64,000 nucleotides of DNA from NCBI GenBank assembly GCA_951812955.1, contig OX638340.1, positions 3,488,001-3,552,000 of the forward strand, read 5' to 3'. The notes under the pieces are model-generated. The model was given only the letters and a program-made list of their open reading frames with translations. It searched no databases and was not told the DNA's origin. The DNA comes from an uncultured Gemmatimonadota bacterium. Lineage in GTDB: Bacteria; JAAXHH01. Shown piece after piece: positions 2,537 to 50,176 of this stretch; position 1 is the first letter of the stretch; each line of letters opens with the position of its first letter. Position numbers and translations under genes: made by a program.

Positions 2537-5500
2537 ATGTTTTTCGAGTCCCGACGGACTTTTAGGCGGTTCGGACGCGCCCGCGTCCAGTTGCTCGTTT
2601 CCCTGTCCTTAATCCTTGCCCTATCCTTGCTCGTCACGTGCGCCAGGGACAACCCCACGCAGTCCCGGTCCGCGGTCACGGCCCGGGTCGTGGTCACGCC
2701 CGAGACCACGGACCTGGCATCGGCAGGACAGTCCGTGCTTCTCAGCGCCCAGGCGCTTGACGACGCCGGCCTGGAAGTCTCGGAGACTCCTGTCACCTGG
2801 CGCAGCAGCGACCCGTCCGTTGCAAGTGTGAGCAAGAACGGCGTGGTCATCGCTACCGGCGAAGGCAGCGTGGTCATAACGGCCATGGCCGGCCAGAAGA
2901 CGGGAAGCGCGCGGGTGACGGTGTCGGATCCGGTGAGGCGGGCCCTGGTCGCCCTGTACAGGGCCACGGGCGGCGAGAACTGGAAGAACAGCGCGAACTG
3001 GCTCAGCGATGAACCCGTTCAGAGATGGCATGGGGTGACAACCGCTGCCGCGGGTAGCGCGTCGGGAACGCGTCCGCGCGCCGATGCGGCTGGCGCGGCG
3101 CTGAATCTGCCCGACAACGGCCTGTCTGGTACGATCCCGCCGGAACTGGGCGACCTGGTCCATCTGCGCGAACTGGACCTGTCCAACAACGGGTTGACGG
3201 GATCGATTCCACCGGAACTGGGCAACCTGTTCCGGCTCGAATTGCTGGATCTCTCCGGTAACCGGTTGTCCGGACCTGTCCCTGCGGAACTGGGCAATTT
3301 GTTTGTCCTGAAGTCTCTGCAACTACAGGACAACGCCGGATTATCCGGTCCCCTTCCTGTTTCTTTCTCCGGCCTGACGGGTCTGGAGACCATGGACCTG
3401 TCGGGCACGGGATTGTGCGCGCCGGCGAACGCGGGGCTTCAGAGGTGGCTCGGAGGAGTGACGACAAGACGGGGCGTCGCGAACTGCGGAGCCGTTGCCG
3501 AACAGGACCGGAAGGCGCTGATCGCGCTGTACGAGACCACGGACGGCCCGAACTGGACGAACAAGACGAACTGGCTGAGCGGGGCCGCTCTCGACCGTTG
3601 GTACGGAGTCTCCACCAACGCGGAAGGGCGTGTAACCGCCCTGCGTCTTTCCGGCAACCGGCTGTCCGGACTCATTCCGACGGCGCTGGGCAACCTAGCC
3701 GCGCTGGTTTCCCTGGACCTCGGGAGCAATGAGCTTTCCGGTACCATACCCGGGGTGTTGGGCAACCTGTCCGCGCTGGTTTCTCTGGACCTGTCCGACA
3801 ACCGGCTGTCGGGACCGATCCCGACAGTCCTGCTCACCCTACATAATCTGCAGACGCTGGACCTGTCCGGCAACCTGTTCGATCTTGAGGAGTCCACGGA
3901 CCGCGACGCCCTGGTCGCCCTGTACAACGCCACAGACGGTCCGAACTGGGTGCGAAAAGACAACTGGCTGAGCGACAGGCCGCTGGGCGAATGGTACGGG
4001 GTGACTACAGACTCTACGGGGAGGGTGACGGAACTTAATCTATGGACTCTAGATGAAGATAACAGATCCGCTAGCAATGGGTTGGCAGGTAGTATCCCGC
4101 CAGAGTTGGGCAACCTGACTAAACTGACACAGCTGGATCTTCGTCGCAATAGGTTATCGGGTAGTATACCACCGGAATTGGGCAACCTGACCAAACTGAA
4201 AACTCTGAGCCTTTCCATCAACGAGTTGTCAGGCCGCATCCCACCGGAACTGGGCAACCTGACCAACCTGATCTGGTTGTGGCTCGACCGTAATCAGTTG
4301 TCAGGCCGCATCCCACCCGAACTAGGTAGCCTGATCAAGTTGGATCAACTGTGGTTACAAGGAAATCAGTTGTCAGGCAGTATTCCATCGGAACTGGGCA
4401 ACTTGAGTAGCCTGAGGCAGCTAGCTCTTATGTCCAGCGGTTTGTCGGGCAGTATACCAGCGGAACTGGGCCGCCTGACCAACCTGATCTGGTTGTGGCT
4501 CGAAGATAATCAACTGTCAGGCCGCATCCCTTCAGAGTTGGGCAATCTGACCCGCCTGGAATCCCTGAGTCTTAACGGAAATGAGTTATCGGGCAGTCTC
4601 CCTTCGGAGTTGGGCAACCTGAGCAACCTGAAACGCCTGTATCTTTTTGACAATACCAATCTGTCGGGTCCGCTGCCCGATTCATTCACTCATCTCAATA
4701 TCGCCAGCCTGTTTCTACGTGGCACGGGGTTGTGTGTGCCGACGGACGCCGCGTTCCAGGCGTGGCTGCAGGGAATCAGGAATAAGGATGGTGTGGTGAA
4801 CTGCACGCTCGCGACGGATGATCGCGACGCCCTGGTCGCCCTGTACAACGCCACCGACGGGCCGAACTGGCGGAACGGCAGGAACTGGCTGAGTGACAGG
4901 CCGCTCGAAGAGTGGTACGGGGTCTCCACCAACGCGGAAGGACGCGTGGACAGCCTGAAGCTATTAGGAAATCGGCTATCGGGCAGCATTTCATCGGAAT
5001 TGGGTAACCTGAGCAACCTGCAAGTCCTGGATCTTCAACGCAATACTGGTTTGTCAGGCAGCATCCCGCCGGAGTTGGGCAATCTGACCAACCTGGAAGT
5101 GCTTGAATTTGATAGAGTTCCTTTGTCAGGCAGCATCCCGCCGGAGTTGGGCAAATTGAGGAACCTGCGTTATCTGGGTCTTTCCCGTAACCAGTTGTCA
5201 GGCCAGGTCCCATCAGAGTTGGGAAACCTGACCAATCTGGAAGTTCTGTGGCTTCACTTCAACGCCAATCTGTCCGGTTCTCTGCCCGCGTCACTCACTG
5301 ATCTCGATAAACTCCGAATCGTGAATCTACGAGGAACCGGGTTGTGCGCGCCGACGGACGCTGCGTTCCAGGCATGGCTGCAGGGCATAGGGAGCAAGAG
5401 TGGTGTGGTGAACTGCGACCCGGTGGGCCCTGTCCCGGGGGACGACCGCGCCGTCCTGGTCGCCCTGTACAACGCCACGGACGGGCCGAACTGGCGGAAC

Positions 5501-49000: not shown

Positions 49001-50176
49001 GAGATCGATCCCGACAGGACGTTGGACTCCGCGCTCGGTATCGCCGGCCGCATCCCCGAGACGGGAAGGATTACGCCGGATGTGCGAGAGCTTCCGACCT
49101 TCGATCTGACGCTGATCCCTTTTTTATGGACAGAAGGTCCCGATCATTCCGTGTTGTCCGCAATCGAAGGGCTCACGCCGGAATCCGATCTGATGCGGCC
49201 GACCCGAGATCTGCTGCCGGTGAGCGACTTCCAGTTGTCGGTGCACGCGCCGGTATGGACTTCAGTGGATCCCGTATCCGATAACGTAGGCGATCTCGGA
49301 CCCGAATTGGAGGCCATCTATGCCCTTGAAGGAGAAACAGGCTACTATATGGGCATCTTCAGACTGGCCGGACCGCAGGGCGGACTACTGGGGATAGCTC
49401 AGGATATACCCAGCTACTTGAGTTTCTCCATCCTCGATCCTTACGTCATTGCACATGAACTGGGGCACAACCTGAATCTCTATCATGCGCCATGCGGCGG
49501 TGCTCGCGGCCCCGATCCGTTCTACCCATATGGGGATGGTTCCATTGGGGTTTCCGGATACGATATGATGAATGAATCCCTGGTGAGTCCGCAAACCTGG
49601 GACCTGATGAGTTATTGCGAACCGATGTGGATCAGCGACTATTCCTTTTCCAGGGCGTTGAGCCATCGAATCGCGCTGGGCGCTACGATCCCGCCGGCTT
49701 TTGCGGCCGTCACGAGAGGCCTGCTGGTCTGGGGGGGTCTGGACGAAGCCGGGGAACTCACCCTCGAGCCCGCCTTTGTAGTTGACGCGCCGCTTAAGCT
49801 GCCGGAATCCGATGGTCCGTATACCATCAGGGGAGAGCGCGAAGACGGCAGCAATCTGTTCTCACTTTCCTTTGCCATATCGGAATACGCCGATACCGAG
49901 GGAGGATCCTTCGCTTTCATTGTCCCCGTGCGGGAGACCTGGCCCGGAAACCTGCACCGTATAACGCTTTCCGGTCCCGGGGGGTTTGCCGAGATCGACG
50001 GAGACGGGGACCGTTACATGGCGCTCATGCGGGACAGCGTAACCGGCGAGGTCAGAGGCATTCTCAGAGACTGGCCTGATCCATCGGATACCTCGGCAGC
50101 GGGCCGGCGTATCCCGCCCGAACCCGGGATGGAAATAACAGTCAGCGGTGGTGTTCCCGATCGGGATTCGTGGTAG
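46064..50176 (+). CDS. Giant lipoprotein (1370 aa): four capped LRR modules and a C-terminal metzincin-type protease domain
   Basis: Lipobox [17 protein letters not shown]. N-caps are [40 protein letters not shown] and three more, and each module is capped (for example [28 protein letters not shown]). The C-terminal domain runs from ~48700 with [11 protein letters not shown] and DLMSYC. Confidence 0.92.
   Translation: [1370 protein letters not shown]
49454..49486 (+). other. Zinc-binding motif [11 protein letters not shown]
   Basis: cat gaa ctg ggg cac aac ctg aat ctc tat cat, in frame with 46064-50176. Confidence 0.8.

Follow-up and report, generated by a model that had tools for sequence, protein, structure and literature searches.

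Mucin-type glycoproteins are cleaved by StcE and TagA, two M66 proteases, of which TagA is itself a lipoprotein; ADAM-type sheddases release ectodomains. The eukaryote-like repeat proteins of sponge symbionts are, in the published view, active inside host cells. In metagenome-assembled genomes (MAGs) from sponges, leucine-rich repeat (LRR) proteins and cadherin domains are enriched, and genes for secretion systems occur in few lineages (Robbins et al. 2021, PMC8163846). The window studied here, a DNA stretch of 64,000 nucleotides, had been described in a first-pass annotation as encoding seven giant lipoproteins shuffled from one kit of extracellular modules.

All seven genes, designated A to G (Table 1), were found at the coordinates first assigned to them and sum to 28,078 nt, or 43.9% of the window, in agreement with the earlier estimate of about 28 kb and 44%. 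Since the open reading frames (ORFs) encode 551 to 2,410 aa and each has strong domain matches, a chance origin is excluded. Gene E, previously taken for a single CDS (36644-39482), consists of two ORFs (36602-38980 and 38910-39482) that are out of frame by 1 nt. Deleting one C from a C4 run restored the frame, and the intact homolog P0326 (68% identical) aligns right across. The shift could stem from faulty sequencing or be a genuine pseudogene lesion. The C terminus of gene E is a conserved two-Cys domain of ~70 aa. Gene B starts 29 nt past the end of gene A, gene G starts 58 nt past gene F, and gene D ends 17 nt upstream of gene C, which makes cotranscription of D and C probable. The same module kit is also drawn on, in a minor way, by an eighth gene, which encodes a small lipoprotein and whose ortholog immediately adjoins the gene C ortholog at two loci (L001 and L022).

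Table 1. Coordinates of the genes, modules and sites in the window
Feature	Position	Strand	Description
Small lipoprotein	1474..2205	-	243 aa; LAMGC followed by GGEKS; one cadherin-like/Big_9 unit
Gene A	2537..9769	+	2410 aa; signal peptide with Cys, LLVTC followed by ARDNPT; single Big_2 ahead of ten capped LRR modules of plant type; without protease
LRR modules of gene A	aa 136-2409 = nt 2942-9763	+	Ten modules
Gene B	9799..11454	+	551 aa; LTSC followed by GKDSPT; two Big_2 and one long capped LRR module; without protease
Gene C	14815..20364	-	1849 aa; LFTC followed by GKDSPT; Big_2, CARDB x5, cadherin-like, CARDB, cadherin-like, CARDB x2, metzincin
Catalytic module of gene C	14815..16320	-	501 aa; N-terminal beta-sandwich, metzincin core, C-terminal beta-sandwich region
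Zinc motif of gene C	15502-15534	-	HEFGHNLSLRH, inside the catalytic module
Gene D	20382..22145	-	587 aa; LVSC followed by GGGGSTTPT; Pro-rich linker, Big_2, two cadherin-like/PKD units, one capped LRR module; without protease
Gene E	36644..39482	+	LLVTC followed by GRDTPT; Big_2, three LRR N-caps with two C-caps, CARDB, PPC, C-terminal domain; frameshifted
C4 homopolymer	38943..38946	+	Site of the reading-frame shift in gene E
Gene F	41083..46005	+	1640 aa; LVTC followed by GKDSPT; Pro-rich linker, two Big_2, four capped LRR modules, metzincin
Metzincin module of gene F	~44560-46005	+	HEIGHNINLYH at 45283-45315
Gene G	46064..50176	+	1370 aa; four capped LRR modules, then metzincin
Metzincin module of gene G	~48701-50176	+	Zinc motif at 49454-49486

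An identical lipobox and mature N terminus had been claimed for all seven proteins. The N terminus, C-G/A-[KR]-D-[STN]-P-T, is indeed common to six of them, with D (CGGGGSTTPT) as the exception, but the textbook lipobox [LVI][ASTVI][GAS]C is matched by B and D only, the residue at position -1 to the Cys being Thr in A, C, E, and F and Arg in G. The C-G-[KR]-D-S-P-T motif is confined to these genes among the lipoprotein-like ORFs of the window and is conserved within the closest clade; in D and F, Pro-rich linkers sit after the anchoring Cys. A Pfam survey indicated a diderm context within the window (Omp85, an OMP beta-barrel, and a BamE-like gene). Judged by sequence, the seven proteins are exported and probably lipid anchored. 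Because the lipobox is noncanonical in five of the seven, lipidation is putative; the proteins are probably exposed at the outer surface, a periplasmic location being also compatible with the sequence.

Pfam searches recovered modules in all seven genes and bore out a single kit in varied copy numbers, comprising Big_2, capped LRR, CARDB, cadherin-like, and PPC units. LRR_1/4/8/14 matches lie in every gene except C. CARDB occupies eight stretches in gene C (265 bits) and one in gene E, Big_9/PKD/Cadherin_4-type units number two in C and two in D, and the one PPC domain is in E, as listed in the first-pass annotation. Big_2 is present in A to F, but G retains a remnant of its first strand only. 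A regular-expression recount returned the previously reported 23 LRR N-caps (A, 10; B, 1; D, 1; E, 3; F, 4; G, 4) and 21 two-Cys caps (A, 9; B, 1; D, 1; E, 2; F, 4; G, 4). The two-Cys caps had been attributed to the N-cap motifs; instead, the N-cap DRxALxALYNATxGxNWxxxxNWLSxxPLxxWYGV is Cys free, and the two-Cys element GLCxPxDAAFQxWLxxIxxxxGVxxC caps the C terminus. Pfam LRRNT_2 had no match in the seven proteins. The LRR modules of genes F and G follow the same order (long, short, short, long). When a capped LRR module was modeled with AF2 (pLDDT 98.1), its top PDB matches were the SERK1, SERK2, and FLS2 ectodomains (30 to 38% identity, TM 0.74 to 0.86), and for every LRR module the predicted fold is that of the SERK/BAK1 ectodomain of plants. 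In comparison with orthologs, dN/dS was 0.15 to 0.29 for the LRR scaffold versus 0.35 to 0.73 for concave positions; the concave-face residues evolve 2 to 2.6 times faster, with dN/dS still below 1 and dS near saturation.

A metzincin of ~480 to 500 aa had been noted in three genes; C, F, and G each carry a C-terminal module of ~500 aa with Peptidase_M66/Reprolysin_3 matches in Pfam. The three modules are mutually 50 to 52% identical and bear HE[FIL]GHN[LI][SN]L[RY]H plus DLMSYC. As initially proposed, the same catalytic domain sits behind unrelated arrays (CARDB/cadherin in C, LRR in F and G), and arrays also occur without it (A, B, D, and E). Since the zinc ligands, catalytic Glu, and Met-turn (H263, E264, H267, H273, and M314) do not vary among 34 homologs and the dN/dS of the module versus orthologs is 0.17 to 0.19, the protease looks functional. 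It is under purifying selection, and the architecture is conserved family-wide. The module is a metzincin of borderline M66 membership, since StcE (M66) is its longest structural match yet ADAM8 is equal in score. Pfam Peptidase_M66 scores were 18.7 to 23.2 bits against a cutoff of 20.6, with G below it, and covered only 55 to 70 of 306 model positions; a match to this model (PF10462) was found in 34 of 34 homologs. With a sequence profile of the family, the top matches in PDB were adamalysin/ADAM and fragilysin metzincins (E ~0.01), and StcE was not retrieved, while the best Foldseek matches of the catalytic core were TACE and BFT (E ~1e-5). Because the M66 similarity is marginal, a mucinase-like specificity would be an analogy only.

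The catalytic module occurs in at least 2,069 clusters (50% identity), C-terminal in every case. The [Big_2]n-[capped LRR]n-protease architecture predominates across 78 loci taken from MAGs of Gemmatimonadota, Latescibacterota, and Acidobacteriota, a good number of which bear sponge-type names. Paralogs of the family stand in tandem runs of up to 5 genes, and some homologs are already named "M66 family metalloprotease" by NCBI. The earlier statement that no described system of this kind was known stands insofar as our literature search found no paper on an LRR-array/metzincin fusion, but the architecture, implicitly special to the window, dominates this whole family. The finding is thus real, moderately interesting, and shared beyond the window; the family is very large, and the genome names of most of the bacteria that carry it suggest marine sponges, a putative host link drawn from MAG names and literature context. 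Gene C has orthologs of the same layout at loci L003, L012, and L022, the last of which conserves the D-C pair; protein P0219 equals gene C's product in length at 94% identity, and C-type orthologs lie on the complete chromosomes OZ245326 and OZ252103. Locus L019 carries orthologs of F (75% protein identity) and G in tandem. On megabase contigs of the related genome CBDBLQ01, both the C-D and the F-G pair are found again, with module order unchanged and 75 to 82% nucleotide identity.

The genes had been interpreted as a diversifying repertoire generated by shuffling, a view that the data bear out only in part. In favor of diversification, orthologs differ by whole-unit indels (one LRR, one Big_2, and one CARDB), gene content differs at the syntenic locus, and concave faces evolve faster, but recent exchange between genes was not seen. 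Module order is unchanged in orthologs of related genomes, and DNA repeats within and between the genes are 64 to 82% identical, with the sole exception of a 190-nt repeat (92.6%) between gene F's own two Big_2 domains. Tandem arrays in the genes have units of 72 nt (one LRR; gene A) and 351 nt, and caps in modules 3 to 10 of gene A are 61 to 70% identical. At the module level, the similarities fit better with amplification inside gene A together with duplication of whole genes (A/E and F/G) than with intergene exchange.

We put at about even chances that these paralogous genes encode exported, probably lipid-anchored proteins, some joining binders to a protease and others serving as adhesins, with host matrix or surface proteins as their targets. 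A signal peptide ending in the conserved Cys would be followed by the family-specific G-[KR]-D-S-P-T and often a Pro-rich tether, with at least one Big_2 Ig domain serving as a stalk. Past the stalk, self-contained binding domains, either capped LRR ectodomains resembling plant SERK or beta-sandwich arrays of CARDB and cadherin-like units, would dock the cell or the protease on extracellular protein or glycoprotein ligands, and in C, F, and G a StcE/ADAM-like zinc metzincin at the C-terminal end would then cut them. We infer an animal host as the target, the likeliest ligands being matrix or cell surface components of a sponge. The protease-less A, B, D, and E may be adhesins or may partner a neighboring protease gene, for which the conserved D-C pair is an example.

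It is possible, though unlikely, that tethered peptidases and capture proteins harvest dissolved or particulate protein of any source as food, the LRR, CARDB, and cadherin arrays being substrate-binding modules of a degradative enzyme and not devices of host-specific recognition. General scavenging would suit the M14 carboxypeptidase-like protein, phosphodiesterase, and solute-binding protein encoded in the window, a family spanning several phyla, and a strongly conserved catalytic module beside variable binders; moreover, Longimicrobiales and Palauibacterales, orders with the family, also inhabit sediments (PMC10469786). However, four of the seven genes lack the protease, SERK-type LRR ectodomains are specific protein or peptide binders and not bulk-substrate binders, ten LRR domains in one protein suit avidity or adhesion more than feeding, and the nearest relatives found are overwhelmingly from MAGs with sponge-type names.

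Improbable to us is a metzincin that mainly cuts its own tether or a neighbor's, such as that of D, freeing soluble eukaryote-like LRR domains into the matrix of the host. Such shedding would supply the missing delivery route for LRR proteins in symbionts without dedicated secretion systems, consistent with the view that classical secretion systems are unlikely to deliver eukaryote-like repeat proteins because few sponge-MAG lineages encode them (Robbins et al., PMC8163846). The conserved adjacency of protease and protease-less genes in the D-C pair, the Pro-rich linkers, and ADAM-type sheddases among the structural neighbors all agree with it, but the idea is pure inference and has no precedent in the family, no cleavage site or autoprocessing motif was found in the proteins, and A, B, and E have no neighboring protease gene.

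Still less probable is a microbe-microbe or antiphage role, in which the arrays bind bacteria, biofilm matrix, or phage and the protease degrades competitor surfaces or phage receptor-binding proteins. By the family descriptions, bacterial proteins of cell-cell adhesion and biofilms frequently contain Big_2 and cadherin-like domains as well as CARDB ("cell adhesion related domain found in bacteria"), and attachment proteins of sponge MAGs could serve adhesion between bacteria (Robbins et al., PMC8163846); against this, the Pfam survey of the window showed no defense-system neighbors, and the plant/animal-receptor-like LRR type is suggestive, no more, of eukaryote-type ligands. Finally, despite the highly repetitive tandem arrays and the homopolymer frameshift in gene E, chimeras from repeat collapse are implausible because the repeats, save that in gene F, are too divergent, and misassembly is very unlikely because the D-C and F-G pairs are kept on related long contigs, besides which C-type genes recur on complete chromosomes, an independent protein matches gene C in length, and ortholog differences are clean whole-unit indels.

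Host-directed binding and proteolysis, the reading we prefer, can be set beside several known systems. StcE/TagA proteins (MEROPS M66, PF10462; E. coli O157, Vibrio, and Aeromonas) share the zinc metzincin with HExxHxxxxxH and Met-turn and an Ig-like beta-sandwich ahead of the catalytic domain. Identity is only ~17%, however, the Pfam match spans the active-site helix to the Met-turn alone, the Gly of HExxHxxGxxH is Ser or Asn in the window's modules, and neither StcE nor TagA is known to have LRR or CARDB arrays. The likeness to adamalysin/ADAM and fragilysin (M12B and M10C) is also conceptual, a metzincin placed on cell surface substrates by noncatalytic modules, but those modules are unrelated (disintegrin and Cys-rich there; LRR, CARDB, and Big_2 here), a prodomain Cys switch was not seen in the window's proteases, and here the protease is C-terminal and the anchor N-terminal. 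LRR surface adhesins of pathogens (Listeria internalins, LRR lipoproteins of Leptospira such as the LIC_11051 family, and the LRR domains of Xanthomonas XopAE/XopL) also combine LRRs with Ig-like domains in cell-anchored form; their NCBIfam similarity comes via the LRR region and is far below cutoff throughout (e.g., 168 versus 600 bits), and they are of another LRR subtype, with neither a protease nor multiple capped modules. Plant LRR receptors (SERK/BAK1, FLS2, and PGIP) and bacterial plant-specific-type LRR proteins share the 24-residue repeat LxxLxxLxLxxNxLSGxIPxxLGx and the capping of both ends, helical at the N terminus, and one module is of SERK-ectodomain size and superposable. In contrast to them, the window's N-cap lacks the plant Cys pairs, its C-cap has its own two-Cys motif (LCxP...FQxWL...C), and up to ten ectodomains stand in a single bacterial protein with no kinase or transmembrane helix. 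Homologs of the window's proteins come from the same kinds of MAGs as the eukaryote-like LRR proteins of sponge symbionts, for which published work counts repeat domains without capped-module architecture, lipoprotein-type N terminus, or metzincin fusion; whereas those proteins are thought to act intracellularly, the proteins described here would be exported and tethered.

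Seven giant modular genes of the window, designated A to G, occupy 28,078 nt by summation of their coordinates, which is 43.9% of the window and agrees with the share that the first-pass annotation had assigned to them. Six of the seven were found as intact open reading frames (ORFs) at the annotated positions, but gene E was found split into two ORFs, and its annotated span of 2839 nt is not divisible by three. The two reading frames join at a run of four C residues, and removal of one C yields ...DDHGDTRSGATSLALSGSVSGRIDPGTDVDYF..., a normal start of the PPC domain. Since the homologous protein P0326 (410 aa, 68% identical to E) is intact, with no frame break across the C4 site, the 1-nt break in E is either a homopolymer sequencing error or the mark of a (recent) pseudogene.

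Window coordinates of the seven genes and of other features discussed in the text
Feature	Coordinates	Strand	Atypical signal-peptide end	Final Trp	Remark
A	2537-9769	+	2630-2660		Intact ORF
B	9799-11454	+			Intact ORF
C	14815-20364	-	20230-20250	14818-14820	Intact ORF
D	20382-22145	-			Intact ORF
E	36644-39482	+	36725-36755		Two ORFs, 36602-38980 and 38910-39482
F	41083-46005	+	41165-41195	46000-46002	Intact ORF
G	46064-50176	+	46125-46155	50171-50173	Intact ORF
Hybrid kinase-regulator	33-1259				Enters at left edge
Small cadherin-like lipoprotein gene	1474-2205	-			243 aa
Segment with A and B	2206-14061				~12 kb
Small lipoprotein-like genes	11856-13164				Two genes
Region upstream of A	2237-2536				AT-rich
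Region upstream of E	36344-36643				AT-rich
Modeled LRR module	4817-5419				In A
Tandem repeat in C linker	20123-20185				21-nt unit
Two-gene island	22272-23600				Beside D
Genes flanking D-C	24102-27445				Three genes
SelA-like and AIR-synthase-related genes	33412-36014				Just upstream of E
C4 run in E	38943-38946				Frame junction
C-terminal domain of E	~39260-39479				Two Cys

Mis-assembly of the giant genes is effectively excluded. DNA repeats within and between the genes are 64 to 82% identical, and among stretches of 100 nt or more a single repeat exceeds 90%, the 190-nt one (92.6%) between the two Big_2 domains of F; thus, repeat collapse is no concern. A survey of synteny detected both the D-C pair, together with its three flanking genes, and the F-G tandem on megabase contigs of a related genome (CBDBLQ01), at 75 to 82% nucleotide identity and with the module order unchanged. 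Furthermore, C-type orthologs are present on the complete chromosomes OZ245326 and OZ252103, and the homologous protein P0219, the sole true close relative among the length-matched proteins, has the same length as C and is 94% identical to it.

The modules named in the first-pass annotation were recovered by Pfam search of the window proteins. LRR_1/4/8/14 matches were found in A, B, D, E, F, and G and Big_2 matches in A to F, while CARDB (PF07705) matched eight stretches of C (265.5 bits) and one of E (45.7 bits), with a Pfam cutoff of 22.7. C and D each hold two Big_9/PKD/Cadherin_4-type units, the PPC domain lies in the second ORF of E, and Peptidase_M66 and Reprolysin_3 matched C, F, and G. 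After the PPC domain and a poly-Gly linker, E ends with a conserved two-Cys domain of ~70 aa (consensus GACxAGLVVNPGESCTYxGxxFSVSxxGRGSIAFFSAGxxIDARGSTINGVRWNFxAxxNSGSNSWTIHTA[DE]), which has no match in Pfam or NCBIfam and also occurs in P0326, P0297, P0273, and P0373, CARDB-PPC proteins from other metagenomes. The linker of C beyond the anchoring Cys contains TAPQTAA repeats, encoded by a 21-nt tandem repeat (three copies, 90% matches).

C, F, and G end in modules of ~500 aa that are 50 to 52% identical to each other and carry the zinc motif HE[FIL]GHN[LI][SN]L[RY]H (HEFGHNLSLRH in C and HEIGHNINLYH in F), followed by the Met-turn DLMSYC 41 residues past the third His. Compared with the metzincin consensus HExxHxxGxxH, the modules keep the three His and the Glu but have Ser or Asn at the Gly position. 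In an alignment with 31 homologs (34 sequences), the three His, the catalytic Glu, the Met-turn Met (M314), and the final Trp are invariant, and so is an S-x-G-x-P element before that Trp. Together with the C-terminal location of the module in nearly all of the top 150 representatives (see below), these invariant residues suggest that its free C-terminus is functional, as a folding, sorting, or anchoring signal. In an AF2 model of the module (pLDDT 80.8, pTM 0.81), an alpha/beta metzincin core lies between an N-terminal beta-sandwich and a C-terminal beta-sandwich region, and Foldseek retrieved ADAM17/TACE, fragilysin, and snake-venom metalloproteinases with it (E ~1e-5). The extended zinc motif, the Met-turn, and the catalytic fold of metzincins are thus all present, in support of a metzincin domain in these three genes as first annotated.

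Assignment to a peptidase family was less straightforward. Whole-protein scores against Peptidase_M66 (PF10462, cutoff 20.6 bits) were 20.7 for C, 23.2 for F, and 18.7 for G, and the catalytic module of C alone scored 22.8 bits; the match is short, covering 55 to 70 of the 306 model positions (~183-252). All 34 homologs matched PF10462, with a best E value of 1.4e-10, and there is no NCBIfam model for the module. Searches of PDB sequences gave marginal adamalysin and fragilysin matches only, around the zinc helix; the family profile retrieved adamalysins at E ~0.01, and StcE was retrieved neither by single-sequence nor by profile search. Because the PF10462 scores are marginal and the profile missed StcE, M66 membership was not adopted as demonstrated. 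We conclude that the module is an apparently active metzincin, with StcE as its likely closest full-length analogue.

Regular expressions reproduced exactly the 23 N-caps counted in the first-pass annotation (A10, B1, D1, E3, F4, and G4) and its 21 two-Cys caps (A9, B1, D1, E2, F4, and G4). Alignment of the caps revealed two distinct elements, an N-cap without Cys (DRxALxALYNATxGxNWxxxxNWLSxxPLxxWYGVxTxxxGRV) and a C-terminal cap carrying the two Cys (GTGLCxPxDAAFQxWLxxIxxxxGVxxC); each module therefore consists of an N-cap, 2 to 13 repeats of 24 residues, and a C-cap. The repeat consensus from 21 modules, LxxLxxLxLxxNxLSGxIPxxLGx, is of the plant-specific (PS) type. A single module of A, aligned with the other 20, was modeled with AF2 at a pLDDT of 98.1, and its best PDB neighbors were SERK1, OsSERK2, FLS2, and ERL2 (30 to 38% identity, TM 0.74 to 0.86). 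The module thus resembles plant SERK/FLS2 ectodomains in its PS-type repeats, its N- and C-terminal caps, and its predicted fold, but the Cys residues of the plant N-cap are missing, and LRRNT_2 (PF08263) gave no Pfam match at E<=0.01 in the six LRR proteins. NCBIfam yielded only far-sub-threshold similarities to the LRR region (XopAE, XopAC, LIC_11051, and internalins). Repeat type, caps, and predicted fold indicate that the LRR module is an autonomous capped ectodomain of the plant-specific type, which makes protein A a string of ten SERK-sized ectodomains. Altogether, 2868 proteins match the module, under depositor names that include Chloroflexi, Opitutae, Latescibacteria, and Gemmatimonadota MAGs; among the best 120, the N-cap is present in 111 and the two-Cys C-cap in 47.

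The same lipobox and mature N-terminus had been attributed to all seven proteins, and this held only in part. All seven have a hydrophobic h-region with an invariant Cys after it, and C-[GA]-[KR]-D-[STN]-P-T directly follows the hydrophobic signal region in six, but D differs (CGGGGSTTPT) and the lipobox is atypical. Only B (LTSC) and D (LVSC) fit [LVI][ASTVI][GAS]C; at -1, A, C, E, and F have Thr and G has Arg, and orthologs of the closest clade have T, S, A, R, N, or P there, with the same GKDSPT after the Cys. Since the lipobox is atypical and a relaxed -1 position also occurs in orthologs, lipidation of A to G at the N-terminal Cys is no more than probable. None of the other lipoprotein-like ORFs of the window (GC followed by GGEKS, MASQ, or RSGR, and AC followed by GDDD) has the Cys-G-[KR]-D-S-P-T motif, which may be a sorting signal or mere shared inheritance; the signal-peptide ends could represent a relaxed Lsp site with a sorting signal, or no lipobox at all. 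A type IX secretion cargo signature (C-terminal Por_Secre_tail or T9SS CTD) was not found. At five Latescibacterota loci from large genomes (L007, L016, L020, L063, and L068), the protease genes start with an ordinary signal peptide, and dockerin/EF-hand-like repeats of the DFDGDGxVGFSDF type replace the Cys-GKDSPT motif; the same architecture would there be anchored in another way.

A word-indexed search for the family returned at least 1066 homologs, several of which are already named 'M66 family metalloprotease' in the database; the best are 79% (a CARDB-containing protein) and 77% ('Gemmatimonadetes bacterium', GCA_009842775.1) identical. When 1.84 billion 50%-identity representatives were searched exhaustively with a profile, 7988 matched at E<=1e-3, 5398 at 1e-10, and 2069 at 1e-30. 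In nearly all of the top 150 representatives (578 to 2750 aa), the module ends at the C-terminus or a few residues before it. P0217 and P0244 were rejected as close relatives of F and G; their lengths are identical, but they are ~40% identical paralogs. This large uncharacterised protease family comprises at least 2069 clusters at 50% identity and has clear domain boundaries and predicted folds.

At least 584 stretches encoding relatives were found in one-genome-per-species contigs, and 78 loci were kept, from Longimicrobiales, Candidatus Palauibacter, other Gemmatimonadota, Latescibacterota, Acidobacteriota, one Pseudohongiella, and unclassified 'bacterium' MAGs. Many of the sources bear names such as SB06xx, RHO, IRC, and APA, which we read as sponge-MAG labels; Ca. 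Palauibacter is likewise a sponge-type name, and on these names a host link is putative. All ORFs of the 78 loci were annotated with HMMs built from the window modules. As the 'Ccap' HMM also matches ordinary LRRs and the 'M66L' HMM gives short matches on C-caps (alignment A2 includes a few cap residues), only the overall module order and full-length protease matches were used. The dominant architecture is [Big_2]0-10-[capped LRR]1-6-protease, and up to five paralogs stand in tandem (L048). Among the annotated loci, only C orthologs show the CARDB-type layout, and protease-less relatives adjoin protease genes in other genomes as well. Cross-phylum nearest neighbors hint at lateral transfer of the catalytic module, but we did not rely on them because the depositor taxonomy of MAGs is inconsistent, the window's own clade being labeled variously 'bacterium', 'Gemmatimonadetes', and 'Latescibacterota'.

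Orthologs differ from the window genes by whole units: a single 24-aa LRR in each of F (aa 877-900) and G (aa 152-175), 86 aa (the length of one Big_2 repeat) in F, and one 117-aa CARDB in C. The C ortholog of locus L003 carries two additional cadherin-CARDB pairs. In loci L001 and L022, the small cadherin-like lipoprotein gene adjoins the C ortholog; in the window, the segment with A and B separates it from C. This segment also holds two small lipoprotein-like genes, and the nearby gene in L022 is instead a different Big_2-LRR-protease. L022 contains a fourth protease paralog that the window lacks, and the A/B-C locus is a hotspot of family turnover. The island beside D, which encodes a 235-aa ORF without family match and a 191-aa OMP beta-barrel protein, has 47% GC versus ~60%, and is missing at the syntenic position in L022. 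In L003 and L012 it adjoins the C ortholog, and it could be mobile or have been rearranged.

By cap similarity, modules 3 to 10 of A group together (61 to 70%), the first modules of A and E pair, and the third module of E falls within the A cluster. A and E also have ~300 nt of AT-rich upstream DNA in common (~68% identical, several conserved blocks), presumably a duplicated promoter or regulatory region, and F and G have the same long-short-short-long module order. These data indicate that within-gene amplification and whole-gene duplication, rather than recent inter-gene exchange, shaped the repertoire. The module shuffling envisaged in the first-pass annotation is therefore borne out for whole-unit indels and locus turnover, but there is no sign of recent exchange between genes.

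By the Nei-Gojobori method against orthologs (dS 0.5 to 1.4, near saturation), dN/dS was 0.17 to 0.19 for the catalytic module, 0.15 to 0.29 for the LRR scaffold, and 0.35 to 0.73 for LRR concave-face positions. The predicted LRR binding face evolves faster than the scaffold; with concave-face values never above 1 and dS near saturation, these estimates do not decide for or against positive selection.

Among the other window genes, a hybrid kinase-regulator (HATPase_c, receiver, and Trans_reg_C DNA-binding domains) lies ~1.3 kb upstream of A, and a regulatory link is possible. The SelA-like/aminotransferase class V gene, with a twin-arginine-like N-terminus (RRGFLKIGALAGVAG), stands side by side with an AIR-synthase-related (SelD-like?) gene; the pair is unrelated to the LRR-metzincin finding. 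Rfam and tRNA scans of the window gave no matches.

Among sponge symbionts, LRR 'eukaryote-like' proteins count as a standard genomic hallmark. Sponge-associated MAGs are enriched in both LRR repeat proteins and cadherin domains (Robbins et al., PMC8163846), and few of these lineages encode secretion-system genes (PMC8163846), which complicates any account of how LRR proteins reach or act on the host. In the same work, fibronectin-binding proteins are restricted to a lineage set that includes Gemmatimonadota and Latescibacterota and overlaps the lineages with sialic-acid and glycosaminoglycan degradation (PMC8163846).

The window, with Omp85, OMP beta-barrel, and BamE-like genes, has a diderm cell context. 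The data are best read as a set of exported binder proteins that are probably tethered by lipid, and three of these would carry an active metzincin at the distal end; their targets, surface exposure, and lipidation are what we infer. Tethered LRR-metzincins would be consistent with the findings of Robbins et al., as the part that acts on proteins when host matrix is used or host surfaces are modified. Rival explanations are that they serve general protein scavenging, that the protease sheds the proteins' own LRR domains, or that the proteins have microbe-microbe or anti-phage roles. A more elaborate version of the host-directed reading, which we consider unlikely as a whole, is a laterally shared, symbiont-specific 'addressable sheddase', with LRR ectodomains as interchangeable address modules for a tethered StcE/ADAM-like metzincin. 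The unusual Cys-G-K-D-S-P-T sorting signal would hold the metzincin on the bacterial surface, the LRR strings would dock it on particular sponge cell-surface receptors or matrix glycoproteins, and cleavage or masking of the target would lead to phagocytosis avoidance and niche remodeling. If so, the 'eukaryote-like LRR proteins' known from sponge symbionts would serve to target a protease outside the cell rather than as intracellular effectors.

For one large bacterial group, LRRs thus appear as capped ectodomains on exported, probably lipid-tethered proteins that are very often fused to a metzincin. This turns a vague category into a concrete model of surface binding and proteolysis of extracellular host material, and the family offers candidate constructs for biochemistry. 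Our literature searches found no paper on the LRR-M66 fusion and none that brings StcE, M66, and LRR together, and the architecture does not appear in Robbins et al. (PMC8163846), in the Palauibacterales description (PMC10469786), or in the sponge Latescibacterota study (PMC12993501). The capped-LRR/CARDB-metzincin architecture is abundant in databases. There is no new principle of biology in these proteins, and precedents exist for modular adhesin-proteases, for M66 lipoproteins, and for LRR 'eukaryote-like' proteins.
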